A DNA stretch of 24,229 nt from a virus. Lineage: Duplodnaviria; Caudoviricetes. Made by a program: the position numbers and the translations under genes. Location of the stretch: IMG/VR virus record IMGVR_UViG_3300044448_001381, positions 1 to 24,229 of that record. One strand, written 5' to 3'. Every line of letters starts with the position of its first letter. The first letter of the stretch is position 1. The notes below the pieces were generated by a model. It ran no database searches, was not told where the DNA came from, and worked only from the letters and a program-made list of their open reading frames with translations. This document shows, in pieces, positions 1-22,548 of this stretch.

Positions 1-3000
1 AAGAGAGCTCTTCGTCGCGCTGCTCGCGGCCGATCTCTCCGTAGAGCTCGCGCTGCCGAGCCTCGAGCGCGGCTGCCACTTCGCGCACCTTGTATTTGCC
101 ACCTGGCTCTAGCCCATACTTCTCCAGCGTCTCGCTGCCCCGGCGGATGTCGTCGGTTTGCTCCAAGATGCGGGCGCTGCTGCTGAAGTCGCCGCGGTTC
201 TGGGTGGACTTAATCTGTGCGGGATCAAATACCGCAATGCCCCCGCTGATAGTGTCCACGATCCCGTCAAACCCTTCAGCACGGACCTCGGCGTCAAGCT
301 GACTAAACGCCTCGTCACGCGACGCTCCCGCGTCCATTTTCTCTTGCGCTCGCTTGGCGTAGACGTCTGCACTGATGGGTTTCTGGACAGCTAGGTAGGC
401 AGGGTAAACTTGTGGCGCGTCGCCTCGGCCCGTCATCTGCGCGAACTCGGCGCTGCTGCTGGCTGCTTCGCCTGTAGCGGCAAAGTAGAACTTGCGCGGC
501 CCCCAACCCATGCCGCGTTGCATGCCCTCAGCGTCTGTCGCCTTCAGAATGTCAAACCGATCAAAGCTACGGGCGCTGCCATGGTAGACCCTTAGCGGCT
601 GGCCGTTCTCGTCGACGACCGTGCTGCCCCCGAACCACGCGACGAAGTTGTCTGCGGCTGGGCGGCCATTCGGAGCGACGCGGTCGCCGAAAGTTTGAGC
701 TGCCCACGACACTACCTCAGGCCGGTAGGTGCTGGGGTCGTAGTCGGCGTCAGCTGGCTGGTCAAAGTCCTCGCTAAACAGGATGGCGTCTGGGTCGTCG
801 AAGGCGTCCGGGTCTTCATCCTCTGGGCGCTGCGGGCGTGACCGCTCGCCGGCCTCGCGCTCCATCCGATCCATGCGTTCGCCTGTGAACCCCTCAGCAG
901 TCACCATTGACCCGTCTAGCGCGTCGTTCACGGCGTTGAGGAACGCCGTCTCTAGACCCTCGGTCTCGACGTTGTATCCGTCTAAGAACCCAGCAGCCTG
1001 CGCTTCTCGAGCTGCGGCCTCAATGTTGCTTCCCCCTTCTCGGCGAACCAAGCGGCGCTGCCGAAGCTGCCCAGACCGCGCCTCAATGTCGACGCCCATC
1101 TTGCGCCACTGATCTAGAGTGAAGCCTCCTTGAGCGTTTACAAACCCAAGCAGCTCTTGCGGACGTCGTCCTGAGCGTAGGTTCTGCGCGCGCGCGTCGG
1201 CCGCAGGTTGAACGCGGCCGTCCAGGTTGCGCACAATCTCTAGGCCAAGATTGTCGAACCACTGGTCGAACGGCAAGCCCTCCTGGACGTTGAAGTTCTT
1301 GTAGGCCGCTCGCATCATGCCCATCTGCATCTCGATCGCTGCAGACGCTTCGCTGCCCGTAACCTTGGCGTCTCGATACATTCCCACCAACGCGCGACGC
1401 ACTTTGCCTACCTGGTCGGCCTCGCGGTTGTGCTCTTCCAGCGCCTGCTCAACAGCCGCCTCTTCGGCTTCAACAGGATCGCCAAATCCTTCTGCCGCCT
1501 CTGTCGCTCCAGCAGCTCGGCGCGTTTCTTGCCGAGCTCGCTCCACGGCCTCCTCGCGCTCTTGGAACTCCTCGAAGGACATGCGGTCGTCGCCCATGCG
1601 GAACGCGGGCTTGATCGCGTCAAACAGCCCCTTGCGGGGGACCACCTCGGTCTTGATTCGGTCAATGCCGACCACGACGTCGACCGTGTCGCCCAGCAAC
1701 TGCTCTAGCTCCTCGGCTTGCTCCATCTCAGGCATGATGTCGCGAGCCTCGTCTTCGCCGATGCCAGCTGCGCGGAGCTTCTCCCGCAACTTGTAAAGCG
1801 GGATCTTGACGTTCTCTGCGCCACTGTCCCGCGCAACCTCTTGCATCCACTGGCGGAACGAATCGGGGTCGCGGTCAGCCAACTCTGCAGGAGCCTCTTG
1901 GATCTTGGTCAGGATGTCTTGCGTGCGCGTAACTTCCTTCTTTTCCAAGCTGCGCATCGCGGCAGCTCGATACACGCCGCCGACTCCGCCGATTACCGTC
2001 ATGCCTTGAGAGACTTCCTTGATCGTCTCCCACACCTCAGATCCAAACTGCCCCTCCGAGATGCGTGACTGGTAGGTCTGTCCGTCTAGACCCACTACAG
2101 TCCCAGCGTCTCGAAGGCCCAAGCCGGCCCCTAGAGCCTCCGCAATCATGCGGGCGTTCTCCATGCCAGAGGTCGAGACGCCGCCTTGCCGGGCGATTTC
2201 CTCGAACACCATTTCGTTAATGGTCTGGCCCGTTTCAGTTGCGGTCTCCGTAAGCACCGCGCTCCCTACCGCCTTGCCAATGTCTTTGGCTGTGTCGGTG
2301 ATGCGGACCTTGTCTAGAGGGTTGCGGCTGGTGGTCTTGCGGACCCACTCACCGATAGGGGTCTTGCTGGCTAGACCGGCTACAGCCTTCGCGCCAATGT
2401 AGTCCAGAGCCATGTTGCCTAAGCCCACCGCAATCATGCTGCTGCGGATGGCTCGAGAGTCGTAGTGGCGGTCGTGCATGTCGATAGCCGACAAGCCGCT
2501 GTTGACCATGAAGCTGTTGGCCAAGTAGCCGGTGGTCATGCCCGCCTTGAACCCAATTGCCGCGCCGGGAATCGCGCCAGCGCCCAGAGCAAAAGCGCCC
2601 GCAGCCGCGCCAGCGCCAGCGCCCGCTGCCCCGTATGGCAGAGCAGAAACTGCACCCTCAACAAACTGCCCTGAAAGCGTCAGGGCTGGCGACAGGAACG
2701 CAATGTCTGCACCCTCGAGCTCTCGCAGCTCGTTCTGCAGCTTGGCTATCTGCTCCCACTGCTCAGGGCTGAGGTCGCTAAGCGCCATGCCGGCAGCCTC
2801 TTTGCCCAGCTTGTTGAGCAGCCAGCCCTTCTTGGCGTCGTTGAAGAGCTGCTCCACAGTCGTGAGCTCAGGCGTGATGTCCCACGCTACGTTGGCGAAC
2901 CGGGGGTTGGTCAGCGCGTCGTAGGTGCTTGGAGCTGTCTTGCGCAGACGCTCGCGATCAACTTGGAGAGACTGAAAGATCCGCCGATAGGTCGGCAGGT

Positions 3001-3343
3001 TGTCTCGGATCGCGGCCTCAGAGACTCCGTAGTCCTCTAGCTTGTGGCCAATCTTCCTGATCTCAGATCGCAGCCTAGCGTCCTGCTGTGACGCCAAGCG
3101 GAAGGCGGTTACGAAGTCCTGCTCTCGCTGCTCGGGCGACTTGGCTGGCCCCAAGGGCGTCATCGGCGGGCGCGCGAGCTCAAGCTCGGCCGGGTCCACG
3201 GCCGTCCCAAATTGATACAGCAGCCGGCGGAAGCCTGGGGGAGTCGGTGGCGTAGTGTTGCTGTAGAAGTCGCTGCGCGGCGGCTGCGGCCCTTGCTGGC
3301 CGCTAGCAGGGAACAAAGGCGGGATCAGGCTGTTGTTGCTCAT
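1..3343 (-). CDS. Large internal virion / ejection protein (positional equivalent of T7 gp16), polyvalent type with an ART domain; partial, runs off the left edge
   Basis: Manual translation from ATG at 3343 (MSNNSLIPPLFPASGQQGPQ...) stays open to base 2 (>1100 codons). It is absent from the ORF track because there is no stop in the window. Contains a Gly/Ala hydrophobic stretch (YGAAGAGAGAAAGAFALGAGAIPGAAIG) and an ART-like region. Follows two other internal virion genes. Confidence 0.88.
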   Translation of the reverse strand, partial: MSNNSLIPPLFPASGQQGPQPPRSDFYSNTTPPTPPGFRRLLYQFGTAVDPAELELARPPMTPLGPAKSPEQREQDFVTAFRLASQQDARLRSEIRKIGHKLEDYGVSEAAIRDNLPTYRRIFQSLQVDRERLRKTAPSTYDALTNPRFANVAWDITPELTTVEQLFNDAKKGWLLNKLGKEAAGMALSDLSPEQWEQIAKLQNELRELEGADIAFLSPALTLSGQFVEGAVSALPYGAAGAGAGAAAGAFALGAGAIPGAAIGFKAGMTTGYLANSFMVNSGLSAIDMHDRHYDSRAIRSSMIAVGLGNMALDYIGAKAVAGLASKTPIGEWVRKTTSRNPLDKVRITDTAKDIGKAVGSAVLTETATETGQTINEMVFEEIARQGGVSTSGMENARMIAEALGAGLGLRDAGTVVGLDGQTYQSRISEGQFGSEVWETIKEVSQGMTVIGGVGGVYRAAAMRSLEKKEVTRTQDILTKIQEAPAELADRDPDSFRQWMQEVARDSGAENVKIPLYKLREKLRAAGIGEDEARDIMPEMEQAEELEQLLGDTVDVVVGIDRIKTEVVPRKGLFDAIKPAFRMGDDRMSFEEFQEREEAVERARQETRRAAGATEAAEGFGDPVEAEEAAVEQALEEHNREADQVGKVRRALVGMYRDAKVTGSEASAAIEMQMGMMRAAYKNFNVQEGLPFDQWFDNLGLEIVRNLDGRVQPAADARAQNLRSGRRPQELLGFVNAQGGFTLDQWRKMGVDIEARSGQLRQRRLVRREGGSNIEAAAREAQAAGFLDGYNVETEGLETAFLNAVNDALDGSMVTAEGFTGERMDRMEREAGERSRPQRPEDEDPDAFDDPDAILFSEDFDQPADADYDPSTYRPEVVSWAAQTFGDRVAPNGRPAADNFVAWFGGSTVVDENGQPLRVYHGSARSFDRFDILKATDAEGMQRGMGWGPRKFYFAATGEAASSSAEFAQMTGRGDAPQVYPAYLAVQKPISADVYAKRAQEKMDAGASRDEAFSQLDAEVRAEGFDGIVDTISGGIAVFDPAQIKSTQNRGDFSSSARILEQTDDIRRGSETLEKYGLEPGGKYKVREVAAALEARQRELYGEIGREQRDEELS
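170..649 (-). other. ADP-ribosyltransferase-like domain (ART-PolyVal type) within the large ejection protein
   Basis: NFVAWFGGSTVVDENGQPLRVYHGS...GWGPRKFYFA...QVYPAYLAVQKP...EGFDGIV...IAVFDPAQIKSTQNRGDF follows the motif order known for ART domains of phage polyvalent proteins. Confidence 0.82.
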
Positions 3344-6416: not shown

Positions 6417-9400
6417 CTAGTCTCCAATCTCCGTGAGCAGGCAGATGTTCAGAATAGTGGCAGGCAAAGGCAGCGACTGACGGACAAACATCTGCCCGCT
6501 CTGCGTCCACTCAGACGGGACAGATGTCTCAAACTCGCCGGACTGCAGCGAGTTGGTGGTCATGCTGTCGACAGTGACAAGCGACGAGCTCGACGGCCCT
6601 ACCTGCAGGCCGGCGGTGTTTAGCAGCCTCAGCCAAGCGTCGCGAACGATCTTGCTGGTGCCTTGCCCAAACCCTTCGACCTGGTAAGCCTGCGGCAACG
6701 TCTGCATGTCGCTGTCGTAGCTCAAGCCGACGATGACGCGCGCAGCCGGCGACCCCAAGCTGATCTCGCCATTGGCGACTGTGTAGGTCTTGGTGTAGCT
6801 GCCATCCTCTACAGCTTGCACGGTCTGCCCGTTCAGGTGCGCCAAACCAGTCACCGTCTTGGTAGCCATGGCCCACGTCGAGATCGTCGCGCTGTAGACC
6901 GTCTGCGGCAGGTCGCGCAGGAGGCGCACGTCTACCTCGGTCCCGCTTGGAGCTGTCAGGATTTCCATCGAGTAGCTCTCGCCGCCCGAGGTCACCTGCA
7001 AGAACTCCCCGATGTCCGCAGGGCTAAACGCCACGCCACTAGCAGTGACGCGCACGGTGTCGCCTACCCGGTAGCTTGCCGTCTGCTGGAACGTGATCGT
7101 GGCCCCGCCAGTGTAGGTGCTCGAGTATCCGTCGCGCACCGAGGCGCTGTCGACGAACACGCTGTCGTCAAGGTCGACCACGACGTCGGGGACCATGCGC
7201 TCGATGCTCCGAACTCCGTCCCGCACCACTACGACGTAGGTCGTATCCTGCAGCCCTTCAGGCACAACGCACACGCTCTCAAACGACGCGGTGCCGCTGT
7301 CGTGCTGGTGCCAAGCCATCACCTCCTCTTCGGGAATGTAGGTGCATCCCAGCAGCTTGTTGCTGCTGCTGACCCACCACATGATCGGATACGGCGCTTG
7401 CTGGAACGCAGCGTCGGTGAGCTCGTAGTTGTCGAACAGGTGCGAGGCTCGCAGGCTGATGTCGCCGGACAAGTAGCCCTGCCTCTGCTGGTTAAACATC
7501 ACCGACCGAACGTGCCCGCCGCGCGCCGCGGCGTAGGCCACGACGTTGTTGACCATGATCGGCTGGACGTTGTTGGCACCCACCTCTCCTTGCTGGCGGA
7601 CAGCCACGGTCTCCGGCGTGATTGCGTCGCTGTTGATGGTAAACAAGCGCCACTCGCCCTGCTGGGTCAGCAGCATCAAGTCTTGCATCGGCACAATGTG
7701 CCGGACCACCGCGGCCTCTCGAGCTGCAAGCGTCACGCTGATGCGGTCGGTGTCTTTGACTGGCAGCGAGTAGCTCATGTCTGACTCGGTGCCGCTGCGC
7801 GTCATCAACAACGTGCGCGGGCGGTTGTTGCTGCCGCCGAATACGCGCCGCTGCTCGAAGTAGCTGACTGCGCGGGCGTGGTTGTTGGTCCCGTTCAGGA
7901 AGTCGTCGCGCAGCGGGGGCGTGATCGACATGTCTTCTTCGGCGCTGTTGTCGTCGACGAAGGTCGTCTCTTCGGTCTCGGCGATCAGCCCGAACAGCCC
8001 GTCGAACTCGCGGTAGACGCGGTAGCGCACAGCTCCAGGGATCGCATTCCACGTCAGCGTGTTGGTTGCGCCGGCCACGTCAATGATGTTGCTAGCGGTA
8101 GCTGGCGTGTCCTGCGCAAAGCTCTCGCTGCGCGCAGCGTCCAGAGCTGTCACCTTGTATTTCTGCTCGCGATCTGCGCTGTTGCTAGCGAAGTAGACAT
8201 TGACGTCGACGTAACGCGTCCCCGTCGCTGTATACGGTGCGCCAGAGCCTCTGCCAGGCATCCACGTCCCATCTTCTCGCTGGAAGCGAATCCGGTAGTC
8301 GCCAACGTTTGTTATGTCTTTCGCCGTGCTGTGACCTACTTGGTAGTAGCCGTCGCCTGACTTGTCCGCTGGGAAATACTGGCTAGCTGACCCGCCAGAC
8401 GGAGTGCTGCTGTGTTCAATGAACACTATGTCGCCGACGGCTAGACCTTTAGCTCCTGAAAATCGCAGGGTAGATGCGGCGGTGGAGTTTGGGGCTGTCT
8501 CTCCAAACGCAAACTCAGCGATGTGGCCAGTAGGGCCGACGCCGCCCATACTCGCCAAGCTGATGTGAAGGTATTCTAGCGTCAGCTTTAGTTTTGCGCC
8601 TCGGTCAACGGTAGGCGTGCCTAGCGTAGGCGTCGCAACGTTTGGCTCGAACGTGACCGACTGCGTCGACCAGTGGGCTAGGCCGTAGCGGATGAGCTCA
8701 AGCGGCGCGTGGCTCGGGTGCGCCAACGTCATGACGTCGTTGCTCTGCGTGTAGGTCAGCTTAGCCAGCTCTGTGTCGCTGTAGGGCAGGTCAAACGTGT
8801 AGGTGCCGTCTTCAGGCAGCAGCTCCCACTTGCTCATCACTGGCGTAGCCGCCAAACCCGTGACGTCTACTGTTGCTCGGTAGACGCCATGCGTGGCCCC
8901 GCCACCCTCTGTTCCAGCAAAGAAGACTGTAGCTCCCTCGAGGTATCGGCGATGCCAGTCTTGATCGCCCATCGAAGCCGTTGCAGTCAGGGCTGGGCCG
9001 TTGCGCACATCGCTGATGCGAAAGTTGTTCGCGTCTACTACCTCGACGACGTAGTAGTCGATGGTCGTGTAGAACCCCAGCGTCTCTAGCGTTGGGCTAG
9101 TGGTCTGCGACCGGAAGCGGATGGTGTCGCCAACAGCTAGCCCGTGACTGGTTGACTCAATATCCTGCAGGTCGTCCGTCTGGGCATTGATTGCTTGGTT
9201 GCCGCCTTGGTAGTTATCGGGCACCTCGCTGTTAAGGAACACCCGCAGCGTCCCCGACAGCGTGCCGTCAATGCCTTGCGCACTGCCGCCTGATTGGTTC
9301 AGCGTAATTGTGCGGCTGTCTACAACCTGCGCCTTGTAGGTCGTTCCGGGGGTTAGCCCTAGCATTTCGCTGCCGATGAGCTGGACCTCGTCGTTGGTCG

Positions 9401-9767
9401 ACAAGCCGTGCCGGCTGGCAAAGGTCAGCGTCTCGGCCGTTGTGTCGACAGACTCAATGCTCCCGCCCTTCGGCGTAGCCCACGTCACCAAGTTGCCGTC
9501 CTTCCAGATCCGGCCACGCTGGTGGCTGAGCTCGATGGCGTAGGCTTCGGTGTCGTTGAACTTGAACGGGATCAGGCGCGACTTGTAGCTGTCGCTGTAG
9601 GCCGCGCCGGCGTAGCGCATCCCCACCCGGCGGTCGAGCACACCCTGCGGGCGCACGATGAAGTTGCGGCAGGTGGCCAACCCATACTGATACTGGCGGA
9701 CGTCGATCCGACCCTGCATCTCAGGGCTGATCTCGCCAGAGCTGAAACTGATCTGCGTTGCCTTCAT
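6417..9767 (-). CDS. Tail tubular protein B / nozzle (T7 gp12-like), 1116 aa, enlarged by insertions
   Basis: N-terminus QISFSSGEISPEMQGRIDVRQY...CRNFIVRPQG...SRLIPFKFN; YTQSNDVMTLAHP; FEQRRVFGG; AWHQHD; C-terminal QSLPLPATILNI. ATGA overlap with the upstream adaptor gene. Confidence 0.92.
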   Translation of the reverse strand: MKATQISFSSGEISPEMQGRIDVRQYQYGLATCRNFIVRPQGVLDRRVGMRYAGAAYSDSYKSRLIPFKFNDTEAYAIELSHQRGRIWKDGNLVTWATPKGGSIESVDTTAETLTFASRHGLSTNDEVQLIGSEMLGLTPGTTYKAQVVDSRTITLNQSGGSAQGIDGTLSGTLRVFLNSEVPDNYQGGNQAINAQTDDLQDIESTSHGLAVGDTIRFRSQTTSPTLETLGFYTTIDYYVVEVVDANNFRISDVRNGPALTATASMGDQDWHRRYLEGATVFFAGTEGGGATHGVYRATVDVTGLAATPVMSKWELLPEDGTYTFDLPYSDTELAKLTYTQSNDVMTLAHPSHAPLELIRYGLAHWSTQSVTFEPNVATPTLGTPTVDRGAKLKLTLEYLHISLASMGGVGPTGHIAEFAFGETAPNSTAASTLRFSGAKGLAVGDIVFIEHSSTPSGGSASQYFPADKSGDGYYQVGHSTAKDITNVGDYRIRFQREDGTWMPGRGSGAPYTATGTRYVDVNVYFASNSADREQKYKVTALDAARSESFAQDTPATASNIIDVAGATNTLTWNAIPGAVRYRVYREFDGLFGLIAETEETTFVDDNSAEEDMSITPPLRDDFLNGTNNHARAVSYFEQRRVFGGSNNRPRTLLMTRSGTESDMSYSLPVKDTDRISVTLAAREAAVVRHIVPMQDLMLLTQQGEWRLFTINSDAITPETVAVRQQGEVGANNVQPIMVNNVVAYAAARGGHVRSVMFNQQRQGYLSGDISLRASHLFDNYELTDAAFQQAPYPIMWWVSSSNKLLGCTYIPEEEVMAWHQHDSGTASFESVCVVPEGLQDTTYVVVVRDGVRSIERMVPDVVVDLDDSVFVDSASVRDGYSSTYTGGATITFQQTASYRVGDTVRVTASGVAFSPADIGEFLQVTSGGESYSMEILTAPSGTEVDVRLLRDLPQTVYSATISTWAMATKTVTGLAHLNGQTVQAVEDGSYTKTYTVANGEISLGSPAARVIVGLSYDSDMQTLPQAYQVEGFGQGTSKIVRDAWLRLLNTAGLQVGPSSSSLVTVDSMTTNSLQSGEFETSVPSEWTQSGQMFVRQSLPLPATILNICLLTEIGD

Positions 9768-12700
9768 CGGTTGCGGTCCCAGTCCGACAGCTCGCCGGTC
9801 TCGCCGCGGTCGCGGTCAAACTCCGCGAGGTGGTAGGTCTCCAGCTTGCGCTCGCGCGTCTTGGTGGCGTCGAACGCGGTCGCCTGCTGCATCATAAACT
9901 CGAACATCTGCTGGCTGCTTTGCGCCGCCTTGACCCCTGCCTCGCCCTTAATCAGCGGGCCAGCCAGCAGCGTAGCGAGCTTCCACGACAGCGCCTGCAC
10001 GAACATCTCGCTGTAGTGGTGGGGGTCGGTGACCTTGGCGTGATAGCGGAGCACCACGTCGTCTTGGTTGCAGTAGATGCGCCGGGTGTAGTTGGCGTCG
10101 AGCTCGATCGCATACTCGAGCGGGGTGTGCCGCCCCATGTAGCAGACGTCGTCCTTCGGCTCCTTCGGCAGCACCGCCAGCACGCCGACGAAGTCGTCGG
10201 GCAAGTAGAAGCTGTAGAGCCACTCGGTGCGGTCTGTGGTCGCCTTGGTCGGGCTAGTGCGGCGAATGCTGAAGTCCCACGGGTGGCGCTGCAGCACGCC
10301 GTTGAGCGCCAGGTCGTAGAACTGCGCGCACAGGTCGGCCTGCCGGCTGCCGTCGCTCGGACGGAAGGCGGTGATGGTCGCCTTGTCGCCCAGGTTGGCC
10401 AGCGCCAGGTTGCAGATTTGGACGTCGGTGTAGGCCGGCTCCACCTGCAGGCTCTCCCACGCGGTGAACAGGCTCTTGCCCAAGTAGTCCATGCCGACGC
10501 CGCTGTATCGGATGTATTCCGTGCCGCCCAAGTCAGCCTCGTAGTTGGTCGAGACGCTGGTCAGATCGACGTAGCGGCTGTGCGGATCTTCGTCTGCCAC
10601 AGCCTTGATCGCCGTGTTGACTGCCTCAGCACTTGTGCGCAAGACCGCGGTGCCATCCAGCGCAGTCGGCGTGGTGTGCTTCTCGCGGACCAAAGCCTGC
10701 ACGAACGGGATCCGCTCGGCTGCCTTGGTCGACAAGCCGGCGCTGACGACGGCCGCTCGCAGGTCTTTCTTGAGCTGCCGCAGGCTCGCCTTGTAGTTCT
10801 CGGACAAGGTCGTCGACTTGGCTTCCTCCTCGCCTTGCATCCACGTCACGAGCTCGACTTCTCCAGTGTCGCCCTGCTCGTCGAGCGCGCGCTTGACGCC
10901 AGCCAGCACGGCCTCGAGGCGCGCAAAGCAGCCATCAGGCTCGCCCTTGCTCCAGCTCACCTGCCGCGCAGGGTCGTAGTGCCCAAAGCCCACGCCGGTC
11001 TCGGTGCCGATCTCGCGGTGCTGGATGGTCGATCCAGGGAACGCGCAGTTGATGTGGAGAATCGGCTCGCCGTAGTGGGTCGCCATCCGCAGCGCCAAGG
11101 TGACGCCGCTGCTGATCTCGATGCCTGGCCGGCGGCGCGGGCCGCGGTCGGGCTGGTAGACCTCTGGGACGCTGTATTGGCCGGGGTAGTTGAAGCCGGG
11201 CGGGAAGGGGTTGTCTTTCCCCAGAGCGTCCACGCACACCATGTAGTGCGTCCCCGACTCCGTCGAGCTCGACTCGTGGCTGACAGCCGTGCCGCCGTAG
11301 GTCTCGCTGTAGGTGAACGCCCCGGTGCTGCGGGTGAATCCCGTGATGTAGTAGGTCTTTCCCGGTGTCAGGCCGTTAGGCAGCTGGCCGGTTGTGAAGA
11401 ACTGCACCGCTGCGTTCGTGTAGAACTCCGCAATGGCCGCGTCCCCGGACACGGTGTTGGTTGACGCCAGCGTGACCGCGTAGGGCGTCCCCTGGCCCGC
11501 GCTACGGCCCTCAAACGGTGACCATGGTAGGATCTTGCAGAACTCGTCAAACGGGACGGCAGAGCCGCTCACAGGCGGCGGCTCGATGACGAACTTGTCG
11601 CCCTCCTGCGGGGTGGCCGACCAGGTGCCGTTGTGGTGCAGCTTCGACACTGTCGCGCTTCCGGTCTCGTCGAGTTGGACATGCTTGAGCATGACCGACT
11701 TCCCGACGTTTGCCGAGCTGGCCGTGGCCGCGCTCGAGCATCGAAGCTGCAAGCCGTTGAGGTAGCCGCTGAACTGCGACAGGCGGTTTGACGCGTGGAC
11801 GTTGTCCACAATCGCCTCGTCGCTGCTGTAGGCCAAGTCCTCGCCGCCGACTTCGTCGCTGACGTAGAAGCTGCAGTGGCTCTCTGGCCGCGTGATCGTG
11901 CAGACGCCAGAGCCAGTTCCGCTAAGGGCCACAACAATGCCCCCCAGTTGCGCAAACTTGTTGGTCGGGATGCCTGACGGCGTGATCGCGTCTCCAGTGG
12001 CGCTGCCCGCTGCCAGCGTGATGGTGGTGCTAGTGGTCGCCTTGACGTAGTAGGTGGTGCTGGAGCTAAACCCGCCTGGCGTGTCGTCGTCGCTGGTGAA
12101 CTTGACGGTTTGCCCTACGTAGAACGTGTGAGCACCCTCGAACACCGTCAAGGTTGCCGCGCTCGTGCTGACAATGAGCTTGACCGGACGCGCGTCTAGA
12201 AGCTGGAAATCGTAGCCATTGGTCAGTGGCTGCGCAAAGTAGCTTGTGCCGTTGGTGATGCCGGTAGCTGGGGTGCCGCCTGAGAACACAATTTCTTCGC
12301 CAAAAGTCAGCCCATGGGCGACATCGAAAACGCCCGACGCGGTCCCTGTGCGCAGCGTGTTGGACCCATACGCGCCAACCGTCTCTGTCCAAGTGTAGCT
12401 CTGCTGCTCGCCAGCTTCGGCGACACGCGTGACGTATAGCCGCGACGCGTTGAGGTCTCCGTGCGCTCGCAACTGATACTGGGCAGTGGTCCCTCCACCC
12501 TCAGCTACAACGCCCGTGAGGTTTTTGGCGGTGCCCCCCACGGTGTCCGCAACTTTGAACGTGGTTGCCGTAACGTCTCGCACAAAGTAGTCCTGCCCGC
12601 CGGTTAGGCCAGCAGGGAACAGGGTGCCGTCCATTTTGATGCGCTGGCCCTCAGCTAGGCCGTGGCCGCTGTTCAAGTTGGGCGAGGAAGTGCTGCCCGT

Positions 12701-13813
12701 AAACACATCAGAGCTGACGTCAAACGTGGCTGTGAAGTTTGTGATCGTCGAGACGCCTGCGTAGCCGCCTACGCTTTCCGTCAGCGCAATCGGCATCCCC
12801 GGCCGCACCTGCATGCTAGGCATCGTGAGCCGGAACTTCTGCGGGCCGCTGTCTAGCGAATACTCTACGCCGATGCGGATGTTCTTGGCGTCCTTGTTCG
12901 GGTCGGACTCGAGGCTGCTGCCCCCGTCGCGGTAGCCGCCGAGCTGCCTGTTCAGCACGAGCGACCCGGTAGCCGAGGCCGCGTTGGCCATGAGCACGAG
13001 CTCGTGGTCGAACACCTCGTTCTCGGCCGGAGCTGGGTCTAGCGGCGGCTCGACGTTGAGCACGAACGGGTCGCCGTCTGTCCGGTCAATAACCCCGCCC
13101 GGCACCGCGGTGTGCGTGGTGTTGGTCCGGTGCCGCGTGATGGTCATCGGGAAGACCTGCGCCACCTTGATGTTGGTCACGGTGCCGGTTCCCGTAACGG
13201 CATCGCCGGTTGGCCACTCCTCTACGGTAAACGTGGTGGTCAAGGGCGTAGTCTTGACCTTGTAGGCGCGGTCTCCAAAGATCAGCCCGCTTACGCCGCC
13301 CGCGGCGCTGATGCCGAACGTGACGTAGTCGTCGACCGCCAGTCCGTGGGCACCGGACGTGGTGAAGGTGCCGCTGCTTAAGCCTGTCAGCGTCTTCACG
13401 ATGCCGCCGGCTTGGCCCATCATGTCGGTCGTGACGCGGTGCGGGAGCTGGCTGCTGCCGCTTAGCCGGAACCGGCCGGGGTAGTCCGACGTCGACTTGT
13501 CGTAGGTCAGGTAGGACGGCGTCGGGTTGTAGAACACGGCCTGCTTGACCATCTGCAGGGCCGCGCCCGCGCAGTTGGCCGTCTGGAACTCGCCGATCTC
13601 CTCAGCTCCTAGCGCGTCGGCTGTCCACCCGCCGGGGAACGTGCCGGTCAGCTGGAACGTGTCCTTGTAACTCCCTTGGGCGAACGTTGGGCCGCCCGTC
13701 GTGCTGGGGTTCCGCAGCGCGTAGAAGTCGTAGAGGGCTTCCCACCCTTGGATGTCGCCAACGGCCGATGCGTTTTCCTGCCCAGCCTCGAGAAGAATGC
13801 GCACCTTGGCCAT
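9764..13813 (-). CDS. 1349-aa fusion: degenerate SGNH/SASA esterase fold with inserted beta-repeat modules, plus C-terminal tail tubular protein A / adaptor (T7 gp11-like)
   Basis: The C-terminal ~220 aa (YTDVQICNLALANLGD...LCAQFYD...VLQRHPWDFSIRR...WLYSFYLPDD...FVQALSWKLATLLAGPL) is a typical podovirus adaptor in the expected position. The remainder has SASA-like blocks (LLEAGQEN; PILHINCAFPGSTI; VTWMQGE; IPFVQA) and HGLxxG modules. Confidence 0.85.
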   Translation of the reverse strand: MAKVRILLEAGQENASAVGDIQGWEALYDFYALRNPSTTGGPTFAQGSYKDTFQLTGTFPGGWTADALGAEEIGEFQTANCAGAALQMVKQAVFYNPTPSYLTYDKSTSDYPGRFRLSGSSQLPHRVTTDMMGQAGGIVKTLTGLSSGTFTTSGAHGLAVDDYVTFGISAAGGVSGLIFGDRAYKVKTTPLTTTFTVEEWPTGDAVTGTGTVTNIKVAQVFPMTITRHRTNTTHTAVPGGVIDRTDGDPFVLNVEPPLDPAPAENEVFDHELVLMANAASATGSLVLNRQLGGYRDGGSSLESDPNKDAKNIRIGVEYSLDSGPQKFRLTMPSMQVRPGMPIALTESVGGYAGVSTITNFTATFDVSSDVFTGSTSSPNLNSGHGLAEGQRIKMDGTLFPAGLTGGQDYFVRDVTATTFKVADTVGGTAKNLTGVVAEGGGTTAQYQLRAHGDLNASRLYVTRVAEAGEQQSYTWTETVGAYGSNTLRTGTASGVFDVAHGLTFGEEIVFSGGTPATGITNGTSYFAQPLTNGYDFQLLDARPVKLIVSTSAATLTVFEGAHTFYVGQTVKFTSDDDTPGGFSSSTTYYVKATTSTTITLAAGSATGDAITPSGIPTNKFAQLGGIVVALSGTGSGVCTITRPESHCSFYVSDEVGGEDLAYSSDEAIVDNVHASNRLSQFSGYLNGLQLRCSSAATASSANVGKSVMLKHVQLDETGSATVSKLHHNGTWSATPQEGDKFVIEPPPVSGSAVPFDEFCKILPWSPFEGRSAGQGTPYAVTLASTNTVSGDAAIAEFYTNAAVQFFTTGQLPNGLTPGKTYYITGFTRSTGAFTYSETYGGTAVSHESSSTESGTHYMVCVDALGKDNPFPPGFNYPGQYSVPEVYQPDRGPRRRPGIEISSGVTLALRMATHYGEPILHINCAFPGSTIQHREIGTETGVGFGHYDPARQVSWSKGEPDGCFARLEAVLAGVKRALDEQGDTGEVELVTWMQGEEEAKSTTLSENYKASLRQLKKDLRAAVVSAGLSTKAAERIPFVQALVREKHTTPTALDGTAVLRTSAEAVNTAIKAVADEDPHSRYVDLTSVSTNYEADLGGTEYIRYSGVGMDYLGKSLFTAWESLQVEPAYTDVQICNLALANLGDKATITAFRPSDGSRQADLCAQFYDLALNGVLQRHPWDFSIRRTSPTKATTDRTEWLYSFYLPDDFVGVLAVLPKEPKDDVCYMGRHTPLEYAIELDANYTRRIYCNQDDVVLRYHAKVTDPHHYSEMFVQALSWKLATLLAGPLIKGEAGVKAAQSSQQMFEFMMQQATAFDATKTRERKLETYHLAEFDRDRGETGELSDWDRNR

Positions 13814-18239: not shown

Positions 18240-18482
18240 TCATAGGTATCTGGTCAGTAGTGCTGCCGTCACCGGGATGGCTCCGCCGATCAGCCCTGCT
18301 AGGCCGCAGCGAACCTCGAGGGACGCGATCTTCTTCTCGATGTCGAACAGGCGCGAGTAGAGCTCTCGCATCTCGCCCTTGAAGTTGTTGCGCTCTTCGC
18401 GGATCTCGGTCGTGAGCCGTTCAATGCTGTCCATAACCAGACGCCGGTATTCATCCCAGCCGTTGCCGTTTGCCTCAGACAT
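18240..18482 (-). CDS. Small coiled-coil protein with C-terminal TM anchor, 80 aa
   Basis: Heptad pattern followed by GLAGLIGGAIPVTAALL; 8-nt overlap with the upstream gene. Confidence 0.75.
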   Translation of the reverse strand: MSEANGNGWDEYRRLVMDSIERLTTEIREERNNFKGEMRELYSRLFDIEKKIASLEVRCGLAGLIGGAIPVTAALLTRYL

Positions 18483-20079
18483 GCCGAATGATCCGTAGCA
18501 GGGTGCCGTTGACGACCATGTTTGCCGTTCCGTCTGCGTCGGCCTCGGCTTGGAACTTGAGCTTGTCGCCGCTGCTCAGGCTCAGAATGGTGCTCAGCGT
18601 CACGCTACCAGTGTTCTGGTCGGTGTCGCGCGAAGAGTAGTTGCTGGCGGTGTGCATGCTCTGTCGCACAAACCCGCTACCGGTGTCGAGCCACGTTCGA
18701 CAGAACGCCTCGACGCGGTTGTTGCCGCTGATGCGGAACGAGCAGTCGATCTGGTAGCGACCCGCTGCTGCGATGTTGATGATCGTGTTGTCCGACGTGT
18801 CGGTTCCGCTGTCCTCGTCGTCGATCTGGATGTTGCCAGTCGAGTCCGCCAGCGCGTCCGACGAGGCCGTGTCCCACGATGCGTAGATGGTGGTGTTGGC
18901 TACCGACGCCGTCGACGTGCCGACAGCTAGCATCGTGCTGACCTTGGCATCCGTGGCCAGCTTGGCTGCCGTCACGTTTGCGTCCGTGATCTTGACGGTA
19001 GTGACCGCGTTGGTGGCTAGCCGCGAGGCGTCGACAGCGCCGTCTGCAATTGCCGCTGCGACCACGGCGTCGTCGGCGATGTGTTCACTGCCGACAGCGT
19101 CGTCTGCCAGCTTGGCTCCGGTGACAGCGTCTGCGCCGAGGCGAGCTGTGTCGACGGCTCCGTCTGCGATGGCGGCGCTGCCAACAGCGTCGTCGGCCAG
19201 GTGCTCGCTGCCGACGGCATCGTCGGCGATCTTGGCACCGGTCACGGCGTCTGCCGCCAGCTGCGTCGTGCCCACAGCGCCGGCCGCAATCTTCGCAGAC
19301 GTCACCGCGTTGGCGTCGATAGCTGCGGTCTCGACCGCGCCTGTAGCAAGTAGCGTGGCGTTGACAGCGCCGTCGGCGATCATGGCCGTGGCGATGTCGC
19401 CGGTTGCGATGTGGAGCGCCTTGGTGCTTCCGTTGTAGGTTAGCGGCGGCTCTAGCCCGACCTCCTGCAGCGCGGCTGCCCCGGCTGTCGGGTTGGCTAG
19501 AAGTTTGCCGGCGGCAGCAGTCAGGCCCAGCCCTACCAGCGTGCCGCTGACGTTGTTGTCGATGCTTGGCCCAGTGACGAACGCCTCGCCATCATCGTCC
19601 CCCACCTTGGTCACCACGGCCACCCGCTGAACCGTGTCCGACGCTCCAGTCGGTGCGGTCTTGGTGAACGCGCCCGCGGTCGCGCTGACGTAGAGCTCGT
19701 CGCCGACATCGTAGGTGCCATCAGGCAGGGCCATGTCTCGGAGGTGGCCCAACAGGACGACCCGGCCGTTCAACGCGGTTGCCGTCGTCTCCCGCATAAA
19801 CCCCATGGCTGGCATCTTGGCTGCGTCGTCAGCGTCTGCCAGAGCTACTAGAGCCTCGCCGTCGCTGTTCGCACCAGAGACGTAGACCAGCGCGTTGGCC
19901 GCGATGTCGCTGCCCGTCTCATTGCGCACAGGCACAGACAGCGCATCGACGAGCTCGGTCAGCTCGCCAGTGGCACCCTGCAAATCAGAGATGCGAAGGC
20001 CGCTCCGCTGCAGCAGCTTCCGCCACACATGCCGGTCATACGGCAGCGGCGGAGCGTCGCGGTCGCTGGCCCTCGACAC
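18475..20079 (-). CDS. Fibre-like virion protein (probable head fibre): N-terminal capsid-cement-like beta domain, decapeptide-repeat shaft, C-terminal C1q/BclA-like jelly roll; 534 aa
   Basis: VRNETG.DIAANALVYVSG...VGDELYVSATAGAFTKTAPT; 15 x 10-aa repeats; INIAAAGRYQIDCSF...LSTILSLSSGDKL. Confidence 0.68.
   Translation of the reverse strand: MSRASDRDAPPLPYDRHVWRKLLQRSGLRISDLQGATGELTELVDALSVPVRNETGSDIAANALVYVSGANSDGEALVALADADDAAKMPAMGFMRETTATALNGRVVLLGHLRDMALPDGTYDVGDELYVSATAGAFTKTAPTGASDTVQRVAVVTKVGDDDGEAFVTGPSIDNNVSGTLVGLGLTAAAGKLLANPTAGAAALQEVGLEPPLTYNGSTKALHIATGDIATAMIADGAVNATLLATGAVETAAIDANAVTSAKIAAGAVGTTQLAADAVTGAKIADDAVGSEHLADDAVGSAAIADGAVDTARLGADAVTGAKLADDAVGSEHIADDAVVAAAIADGAVDASRLATNAVTTVKITDANVTAAKLATDAKVSTMLAVGTSTASVANTTIYASWDTASSDALADSTGNIQIDDEDSGTDTSDNTIINIAAAGRYQIDCSFRISGNNRVEAFCRTWLDTGSGFVRQSMHTASNYSSRDTDQNTGSVTLSTILSLSSGDKLKFQAEADADGTANMVVNGTLLRIIRHV
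18961..19410 (-). repeat. 15 tandem imperfect 30-nt (10-aa) coding repeats, consensus [IL]AxxAVxxxx
   Basis: IATGDIATAM IADGAVNATL LATGAVETAA IDANAVTSAK IAAGAVGTTQ LAADAVTGAK IADDAVGSEH LADDAVGSAA IADGAVDTAR LGADAVTGAK LADDAVGSEH IADDAVVAAA IADGAVDASR LATNAVTTVK ITDANVTAAK. Confidence 0.92.
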
Positions 20080-22083: not shown

Positions 22084-22548
22084 CTATGCCTTCTTCATGT
22101 AACAGGTAAAGGTCGCGCGGTAGTCGTCGCGACCGGCCATAATTCTGTCCAGCCGGCTGTGTGCCGGCGCGTGCCACACCATGTCGGCGTGATACTCCGC
22201 TGCGGTGTCCTCGGCCGCGCGCATTAGCAAGTTGCCGACGCCCGATCGCCGCACGGTTGGCTTGACGAACAGCGAGTCGTTGACCAGCTGCATCTGCCCT
22301 GAGTTGTGCAGGTGCTCGACCAACACGCAGCAGCAGTAGCCGACCACCTCGTCATCGAGCTCGACGACCCAGATGATCAGCCGGTCGGCGTCCTCGAGCA
22401 TCTGGTATTGATCCCAGTCAGGATCGATGTTGCGCAGGCCAGTGTCTCGAGCGACCTCGCAGAAGTGGTCGACAAACAGAGTGCCAACGCCGGGGGAGCG
22501 CATGTCATCTACGCATCCCAGCCGCAAGGTTAGGGTGTCGGTGGCCAC
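22084..22548 (-). CDS. GNAT-family acetyltransferase, 154 aa
   Basis: DPDWDQY; EVVGY; acetyl-CoA motif A LFVKPTVRRSGVGNLLMRAAE. Confidence 0.88.
   Translation of the reverse strand: MATDTLTLRLGCVDDMRSPGVGTLFVDHFCEVARDTGLRNIDPDWDQYQMLEDADRLIIWVVELDDEVVGYCCCVLVEHLHNSGQMQLVNDSLFVKPTVRRSGVGNLLMRAAEDTAAEYHADMVWHAPAHSRLDRIMAGRDDYRATFTCYMKKA

Follow-up and report, generated by a model that had tools for sequence, protein, structure and literature searches.

The usual view of tailed-phage adaptors is of small, conserved structural rings, with tail fibres and spikes as the place to look for receptor-binding proteins. Twelve glycan-acting neck appendages occur in phi29, each a separate trimeric protein, and hydrolase activity has reportedly been found in the Klebsiella KP32 tail tubular protein A (presumably structure 5mu4), located in the ~190-amino-acid (aa) adaptor itself. 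SGNH esterase domains are carried on virions by G7C gp63.1, Possum gp66, Klebsiella prophage receptor-binding proteins, the Pan3 tailspike (9VYH) and N4 (9LC0_I). Two accounts describe podophage adaptors as stand-alone proteins of ~200 aa onto which separate fibres dock (PMC13730344; bioRxiv 10.64898/2026.02.16.706137), and a third describes an accessory N-terminal domain on the R4C and RcGTA adaptors, present in 12 copies at the ring periphery and, in R4C, 106 aa long, Ig-like (immunoglobulin-like) and in contact with the capsid (PMC10276861). The window analyzed here (the whole 24,229-nucleotide stretch of the IMG/VR virus record IMGVR_UViG_3300044448_001381) contains one open reading frame (ORF) in which an SGNH-type esterase fold and a podophage tail adaptor form a single chain. 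Both parts are known already, and R4C offers a known case of an adaptor with a small accessory domain at its N-terminus. However, the window arm is ten times larger than that of R4C, has an enzyme fold and carries variable modules, and in contrast to the SGNH receptor-binding proteins listed above, which are separate fibres or spikes, its esterase domain lies within the adaptor chain and is likely dead.

The fusion gene and its parts are arranged as follows:

9764..13813, minus strand: fusion of an esterase-fold appendage and a podophage tail adaptor, 1349 aa
13724..13813, minus strand: first beta-strand (aa 3-11) and block I of the split SGNH domain, aa 1-30, with GQEN at aa 11-14
13181..13396, minus strand: beta-barrel repeat 1, aa 140-211, missing in several relatives
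12179..12913, minus strand: hypervariable stretch with barrel repeats 2 (aa 369-435) and 3 (aa 485-543), aa 301-545
11969..12175, minus strand: beta-barrel repeat 4, aa 547-615
11504..11806, minus strand: conserved all-beta middle domain (GLQLRC...GDKFVIEPPP), aa ~670-770, also in the shortest family members
11267..11491, minus strand: beta-barrel repeat 5, aa 775-849
10442..11230, minus strand: body of the SASA/CE6 SGNH domain, aa 862-1124, with QGE (993-995) kept and Arg1102
9764..10432, minus strand: podophage tail adaptor domain of the BPP-1 Bbp14 / Carin-1 connector type, aa 1128-1349

The 1349-aa protein is encoded in a single frame with an ATG start, and the third-codon-position GC is 0.70-0.94 along the full length of the gene. 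The region 10400-10500 is crossed without gaps by contigs of four out of four runs (2014, 2017, 2024, and 2025; contig spans X8 10257-12148, X13 10150-10618, X14 10255-10776, and X18 9600-11785), with no stop or frameshift near 10440 in any of these contigs. The original prediction, which had described an uninterrupted 1349-codon ORF overlapping the nozzle start by ATGA and had proposed read support across the junction as a check, is borne out on each of these points; the end of the fusion gene shares these 4 nt with the start of the nozzle ORF (6417..9767).

The C-terminal ~220 aa, read in the original prediction as a podovirus adaptor, resemble BPP-1 Bbp14, Carin-1 gp46 (8CK1), T7 gp11, and PhiXacm4-11 gp29 in profile and fold. 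The assignment holds, as aa 1129-1329 match positions 3-184 of the 190 in profile phrog_394 (E 3.9e-37) and aa 1130-1300 match the Carin-1 connector 8ck1_E (E 3.1e-13). Matches to antibody light chains (E 0.003 and 0.026) were set aside as composition noise. The adaptor fold (helix bundle plus beta-dock) was scored on the model of a minimal relative, L060 (738 aa), standing in for the window adaptor; this model matches 8ck1_E (TM 0.84 of target, rmsd (root-mean-square deviation) 2.7, E 2.3e-13), T7 gp11 7box_N (E 9e-5), 6r21_M, and 5mu4. Identity to Bbp14 is 36%, and the gene order (capsid, Bbp16-like, small ORF, adaptor, nozzle, core) is that of BPP-1. Unlike the stand-alone ~200-aa chains of T7 gp11/BPP-1-type adaptors, this adaptor is part of a 1349-aa fusion. 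In all five complete relatives (5/5), phrog_394 has one match per genome, always within an open frame of 742-1449 aa; because the fusion is the only phrog_394 adaptor in these genomes, the 12-mer adaptor ring most likely carries the appendage.

Tandem podophage adaptor domains were observed in other proteins of the search, namely P0070 (1073 aa, ~6 repeats), P0078 (629 aa, ~3), P0084 (958 aa, ~5), P0101 (745 aa, ~4), and P0107 (1530 aa, ~4). Their repeat numbers suggest covalently pre-linked adaptor rings, in which two 6-repeat, four 3-repeat, or three 4-repeat copies would make up a 12-mer. P0173 (235 aa, 78% to the adaptor), which starts within the final helix of the esterase and lies on a contig of 2.6 kb, was regarded as a probable fragment.

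The appendage is, according to its predicted structure, a SASA/CE6 esterase cut in two, with strand 1 at the N-terminus and the remainder ~830 residues further on. In the AlphaFold2 model of aa 1-1135 (predicted local distance difference test, pLDDT, 87.7; predicted template modelling score, pTM, 0.86), residues 3..1123 align onto 1..228 of 1zmb_A (Z 24.6, rmsd 2.3, 226 aligned), and the esterase is therefore taken to be split, as this span covers the whole of 1zmb_A. The model also matches 2apj, the Pan3 tailspike 9vyh (Z 22.4), NanS 3pt5 (Z 21.6), and G7C gp63.1 4qnl (Z 12.0), and the N4 tail chain 9LC0_I is among the structural matches; Foldseek agrees on 1zmb, 2apj, and 3pt5. At the profile level, Pfam SASA (PF03629) matches aa 970-1025 weakly, just below the cut-off (E 3.1e-5), and is matched more strongly in relatives, down to E 2.9e-13, while the alignment places block I (GQxN) at aa 11-14, block III (QGE) at aa 993-995, and the DxxH position near 1100. 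The domain resembles the SASA/CE6 esterases (PF03629; 1ZMB, 2APJ, and NanS 3PT5) in its fold (Z 21.6-24.6) and in blocks I and III, but differs in being split by ~830 residues after strand 1, in having Glu13 and Arg1102, and in being fused to a virion ring protein. When the whole fusion of L060 was modelled (pLDDT 93.0, pTM 0.90), the last esterase helix and adaptor helix 1 were joined by a link of 4-5 residues. The large multi-domain N-terminal appendage of the original prediction is confirmed as aa ~1-1125, although the esterase fold and the inserted barrels had not been recognized; a glycan-related role, such as the glycan binding proposed there, would fit the SGNH/SASA fold and the strain-to-strain swapping of the distal barrels.

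The catalytic residues appear to be replaced in the window and kept in most relatives. Glu13 occupies the position of the Ser nucleophile (GQEN rather than GQSN) and Arg1102 (E-Y-I-R) that of the catalytic His of DxxH, and because of these two replacements the esterase domain of this phage is likely a pseudo-enzyme. QGE of block III is kept here and is present in 163/188 homologues. Both Ser and His are present in 128/188 and both are absent in 15/188; another 14/188 score as lacking Ser only, several of which are mis-calls or fragments, 1/188 scores as lacking His only in an apparently misaligned row, and 30 of the 188 rows could not be scored at one catalytic site. In this alignment de-replication was incomplete (188/194 kept), and 31 rows are unscored or misaligned. 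Glu13 and Arg1102 are common to P0001-P0005, whereas the nearest outside relatives, P0006 and P0007, keep Ser and His. Loss of Ser falls on separate branches (the window clade, P0009, P0012/13/16, P0014, the L007-L013 group, and L090) in a quick tree of 110 rows whose residue labels contained errors, the counts given above being taken from the alignment instead. Judging from these residues, the fusion has been maintained in lineages whose enzyme is dead.

The ~830-residue insert is nearly all beta strand and includes five copies of a ~65-aa repeat, of which 0 to 6 were detected per relative. The esterase body and adaptor of P0001 are 100% identical to those of the window, whereas aa 301-545 are only 59-74% identical; in P0003 the corresponding values are 93-94% and, for aa 301-620, 23-34%. 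The stretches replaced in run X18 match the hypervariable region. Divergence of the distal barrels, far faster than that of the esterase and adaptor, would be the pattern expected of receptor-binding modules. Matches of the repeat to the endosialidase beta-barrel (PF12195, End_beta_barrel) are weak and sub-cut-off (3/70 repeats, best E 1.3e-5), and those to E1_FCCH (PF16190) are equally weak and sub-cut-off (3/70 repeats, best E 4.2e-5); the repeat also scored 0.90 to an E1_FCCH cluster in the Atlas, and 4hiz was matched at E 0.23. The endosialidase barrel binds sugar, and we know of no sugar-binding role for E1_FCCH. The barrel region has counterparts elsewhere: the very large proteins P0122 (2987 aa, ending in a segment that looks flagellin-like by its motif), P0153, and P0161 contain 14-20 stretches matching it, and in the complete relative G005 the Bbp16-like protein after the capsid gene (L097:15215-15973, minus strand) has one barrel repeat inserted, as judged by eye.

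Among uncultured phages the fusion is common. The adaptor query against long proteins returned 18 clusters (90% identity) of 997-1513 aa. When 1.84 billion representatives were searched with a profile, 145 new proteins (50%-identity clusters) were listed, and 116 of these have an esterase body and then an adaptor. At 61/93 loci, many of which are near-copies, the fusion lies in one ORF, with the nozzle next wherever the contig extends that far; the appendage has another C-terminus at 22/93, and the contig end cuts 10/93. Adaptors with long N-terminal extensions, which the original prediction had proposed to look for in viral metagenomes, are common on all three counts (18 and 116 clusters, 61/93 loci). 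It had also held that fusions already common and described would speak against it; uncultured phages commonly have them, and a literature search that subscription papers mostly fell outside and that did not cover supplements yielded no account of an esterase joined to an adaptor. Among deposited phages (50,697 records), 128 match the esterase-plus-adaptor query and 0/128 do so over 80% of it, the best 25 of the 128 matching essentially the adaptor part only (BPP-1 Bbp14, 36%, is among the best), and the appendage of L060 has no match among deposited phage records. The window DNA was recovered in seawater and marine metagenomes. There is no usable host clue, as the lone genome-contig match is a 3.8-kb contig of a Flavobacteriales metagenome-assembled genome that is possibly mis-binned, and 20 protein clusters looked up for a host gave no organism and no informative name.

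The arm is also found on other adaptor types. Nine of the 15 representatives with an esterase and without a podophage adaptor end in another adaptor type, and 6/15 stop in or just after the esterase and are fragments or degenerate (putatively so for P0067 and P0148). Ad1/DnaT_2 adaptors (phrog_477) carry the arm in L029, L046, L049, L050, and L091, with E down to 3e-42, and in L029 head closure, neck, and terminator genes come after the fusion. In L043 and L045 the arm is on gpW-like adaptors (phrog_2545) after the terminase. A fourth type of C-terminus, placed before a Neck1/gpG-like ORF in L034 and L039, has no PHROG match and is presumably Mu gp36-like, going by its motif and position only. 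L034:9918-19705 is a gene block of long-tailed type, in which the arm is on an adaptor-position domain and the tail genes have no PHROG matches. Holding the podophage fusions together in the esterase-body tree was rejected (approximately unbiased test, p-AU 1.4e-4, on 48 of 110 rows picked after the larger tree had been seen), which means that the arm has changed adaptor type more than once.

Genes around the fusion are arranged as in BPP-1-like podophages. The major capsid gene precedes it, as do a Bbp16-like gene and an ORF of 67 aa; flanking it are the nozzle, core proteins, portal (48% identity to the BPP-1 portal), and terminase. Two further features of the window bear on the question of fibres:

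6417..9767, minus strand: enlarged nozzle, 1116 aa, phrog_376 E 4.7e-163, with barrel repeats at aa 105-169 and 194-265
18475..20079, minus strand: fibre-like protein, 534 aa, between portal and scaffold, phrog_892 tail fibre E 4.8e-30

The latter has short repeats and an N-terminal part that leans to capsid cement domains, and Phage_cement_2 occurs on 12-23% of the members of the nearest clusters, which is a lead only; the product is likely a head or vertex fibre, judging from its cement-like N-terminal part. The earlier statement that the tail region has no separate tail-fibre gene is correct for the tail operon but has to be qualified by this fibre-like gene at 18475-20079 in the portal/scaffold region, and the absence of fibres cannot be demonstrated from the window because this 24-kb fragment ends within the large core-protein gene. 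The T7-type tail-fibre domain PF03906 was found in 0/5 complete relatives, but the controls were equally blank and absence is not shown by this search; no PHROG tail-fibre families were detected among the 40 of 91 ORFs scanned in three complete relatives, in which, moreover, the core-protein gene and the early genes are immediate neighbours. Relatives encode fibre-like ORFs between portal and scaffold, in a variable interval that holds other fibre-like and glycan-related ORFs. These results are no more than suggestive, and it is plausible that the arm replaces tail fibres.

Several observations concern these neighboring genes. Enlarged nozzles (that of the window and those of L012, L015, and L030, 1413-1429 aa) bear 1-4 of the arm's barrel repeats. 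The large core protein at window 2-3343 (minus strand) has LPD22 and ART-PolyVal (ADP-ribosyltransferase, E 1.8e-17) domains, and in relatives this gene exceeds 3,600 codons and encodes ParB-like or DNA methyltransferase domains instead. A GNAT acetyltransferase is encoded at window 22084-22548 (minus strand) between terminase and portal, and also in relatives G001 and G005.

We propose, with a probability of roughly 0.6, that the fusion forms a collar of up to 12 monomeric arms, whose esterase is active in most relatives and reduced in this phage to binding or to a pedestal, with specificity residing in the swappable barrels. The interpretation given in the original prediction, of up to 12 monomeric appendages in place of or in addition to 6 trimeric fibres, is partly supported. 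The protein is a single chain with the adaptor at its C-terminus and is the sole adaptor in complete relatives. Predicted structures have aa 3-11 and aa 862-1124 closing the esterase domain with 4-5 residues to adaptor helix 1, and the orientation of the arm would be defined in the short relative L060 (pTM 0.90). In known structures, such adaptors assemble as 12-mers and helix 1 lies in the lower bundle beside the nozzle, the usual fibre-docking place; reports on related adaptors likewise describe 12-mer rings, with the first helices in the lower bundle and fibres docking at the periphery (bioRxiv 10.64898/2026.02.16.706137; PMC13730344). SGNH domains of phage receptor-binding proteins de-acetylate surface polysaccharide, according to two further reports (PMC13123978; PMC9569702). 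With G7C- and Possum-type receptor-binding proteins as a model for de-acetylation, the arm of most relatives may bind capsule or O-antigen and, as an active O-acetylesterase, de-acetylate it. In the window lineage the arm may have become a binding-only or pedestal domain that likely grips host surface polysaccharide without cutting it, and host range would be tuned through distal barrel swapping.

Several points weigh against this proposal. The barrel matches are weak, below Pfam cut-offs, and no better for the endosialidase barrel than for E1_FCCH. The one solved adaptor considered here that has an N-terminal accessory domain is that of R4C, and its authors hold a part in adsorption to be unlikely for that domain (PMC10276861). 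There are fibre-like genes in the portal/scaffold region, here and in relatives, and the nozzle has barrels of its own, so that the chief receptor binder may be something other than the arm. Finally, some rings may be mixed, since junction starts linked to a Shine-Dalgarno (SD) word occur in 5/32 loci versus a background of 1.6%.

A broader version of the collar proposal, which we regard as tentative, is that of a widespread, undescribed design for host recognition in which uncultured aquatic phages place an esterase with plug-in barrels on the ring that first completes the head, made of whichever adaptor family they have (podophage, Ad1/DnaT_2, gpW, and probably Mu gp36-like), forming a 12-fold neck collar that would replace fibres. 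Several lineages, that of the window among them, would have been disarmed independently into a glycan gripper with barrel-swapped specificity.

A mixed ring or a shed arm is unlikely, yet is the alternative that survives best. Here an internal start (GTG 10444) or proteolysis would give short adaptors and fewer than 12 arms (e.g., 6). The candidate start is the following:

10442..10457, minus strand: possible internal start, in-frame GTG (Val1124, 10444-10442) with GGAG at 10457-10454, giving a putative 226-aa stand-alone adaptor

The GGAG lies 9 nt upstream of the GTG, and a start codon with an SD-like word is present at the junction in 5/32 loci, window included, versus 0.016 of background windows; however, 27/32 loci have no SD-linked start, the 32 loci are relatives of one another, and GGAG arises anyway from the Trp-Glu codons in the final helix of the esterase. 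An ATG exactly 5 codons ahead of the adaptor V/I-D/E-I-C motif in 10/32 loci, near the start of the stand-alone adaptors P0174 and P0177, points in the same direction, but Met at -5 occurs in only 3/92 database proteins and may be a relic of an ancestral start. By estimate, twelve ~120-kDa arms would crowd a small ring. As for shedding, the 4-5-residue link, which is well predicted in L060, is unlike a typical cleavage loop.

It is improbable that the arm is a secondary adhesin by which virions are tethered to marine exopolymer, gels, or sheaths, with host recognition left to the nozzle and the portal-region fibres. The marine source, the fold kept with a dead active site, the barrel inserts of the nozzle itself, and the separate fibre-like gene would all suit such a role, but distal barrel swapping between otherwise identical strains suits host-range selection better, and the intact catalytic pair in most relatives suggests a specific acetylated substrate. 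We consider a structural brace, as proposed for R4C, still harder to sustain. The R4C precedent (PMC10276861) and the repeated loss of catalysis with retention of the domain are in its favour; on the other hand, Ser and His are kept in 128/188 homologues across deep divergence, anywhere between 0 and 6 barrels are detected and there is swapping among the distal ones, and an acetylesterase fold is not needed for a brace. An assembly artefact joining two genes, in favour of which nothing was found, has a negligible chance and is rejected because the junction is bridged without gaps in 4/4 runs and the same fusion recurs in 18 clusters at 90% identity, in 116 of the 145 new clusters at 50%, and at 61/93 loci.

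Under the collar proposal, a glycan-acting module apparently sits on the adaptor in a large uncultured family, where it would escape pipelines for annotation and host prediction. The family offers a natural series in which one scaffold bears either an active or a dead acetylesterase, and with which to ask if infection requires catalysis or can do with binding alone. The adaptor N-terminus would also serve as a site that tolerates 12-fold display in phages of different tail types.

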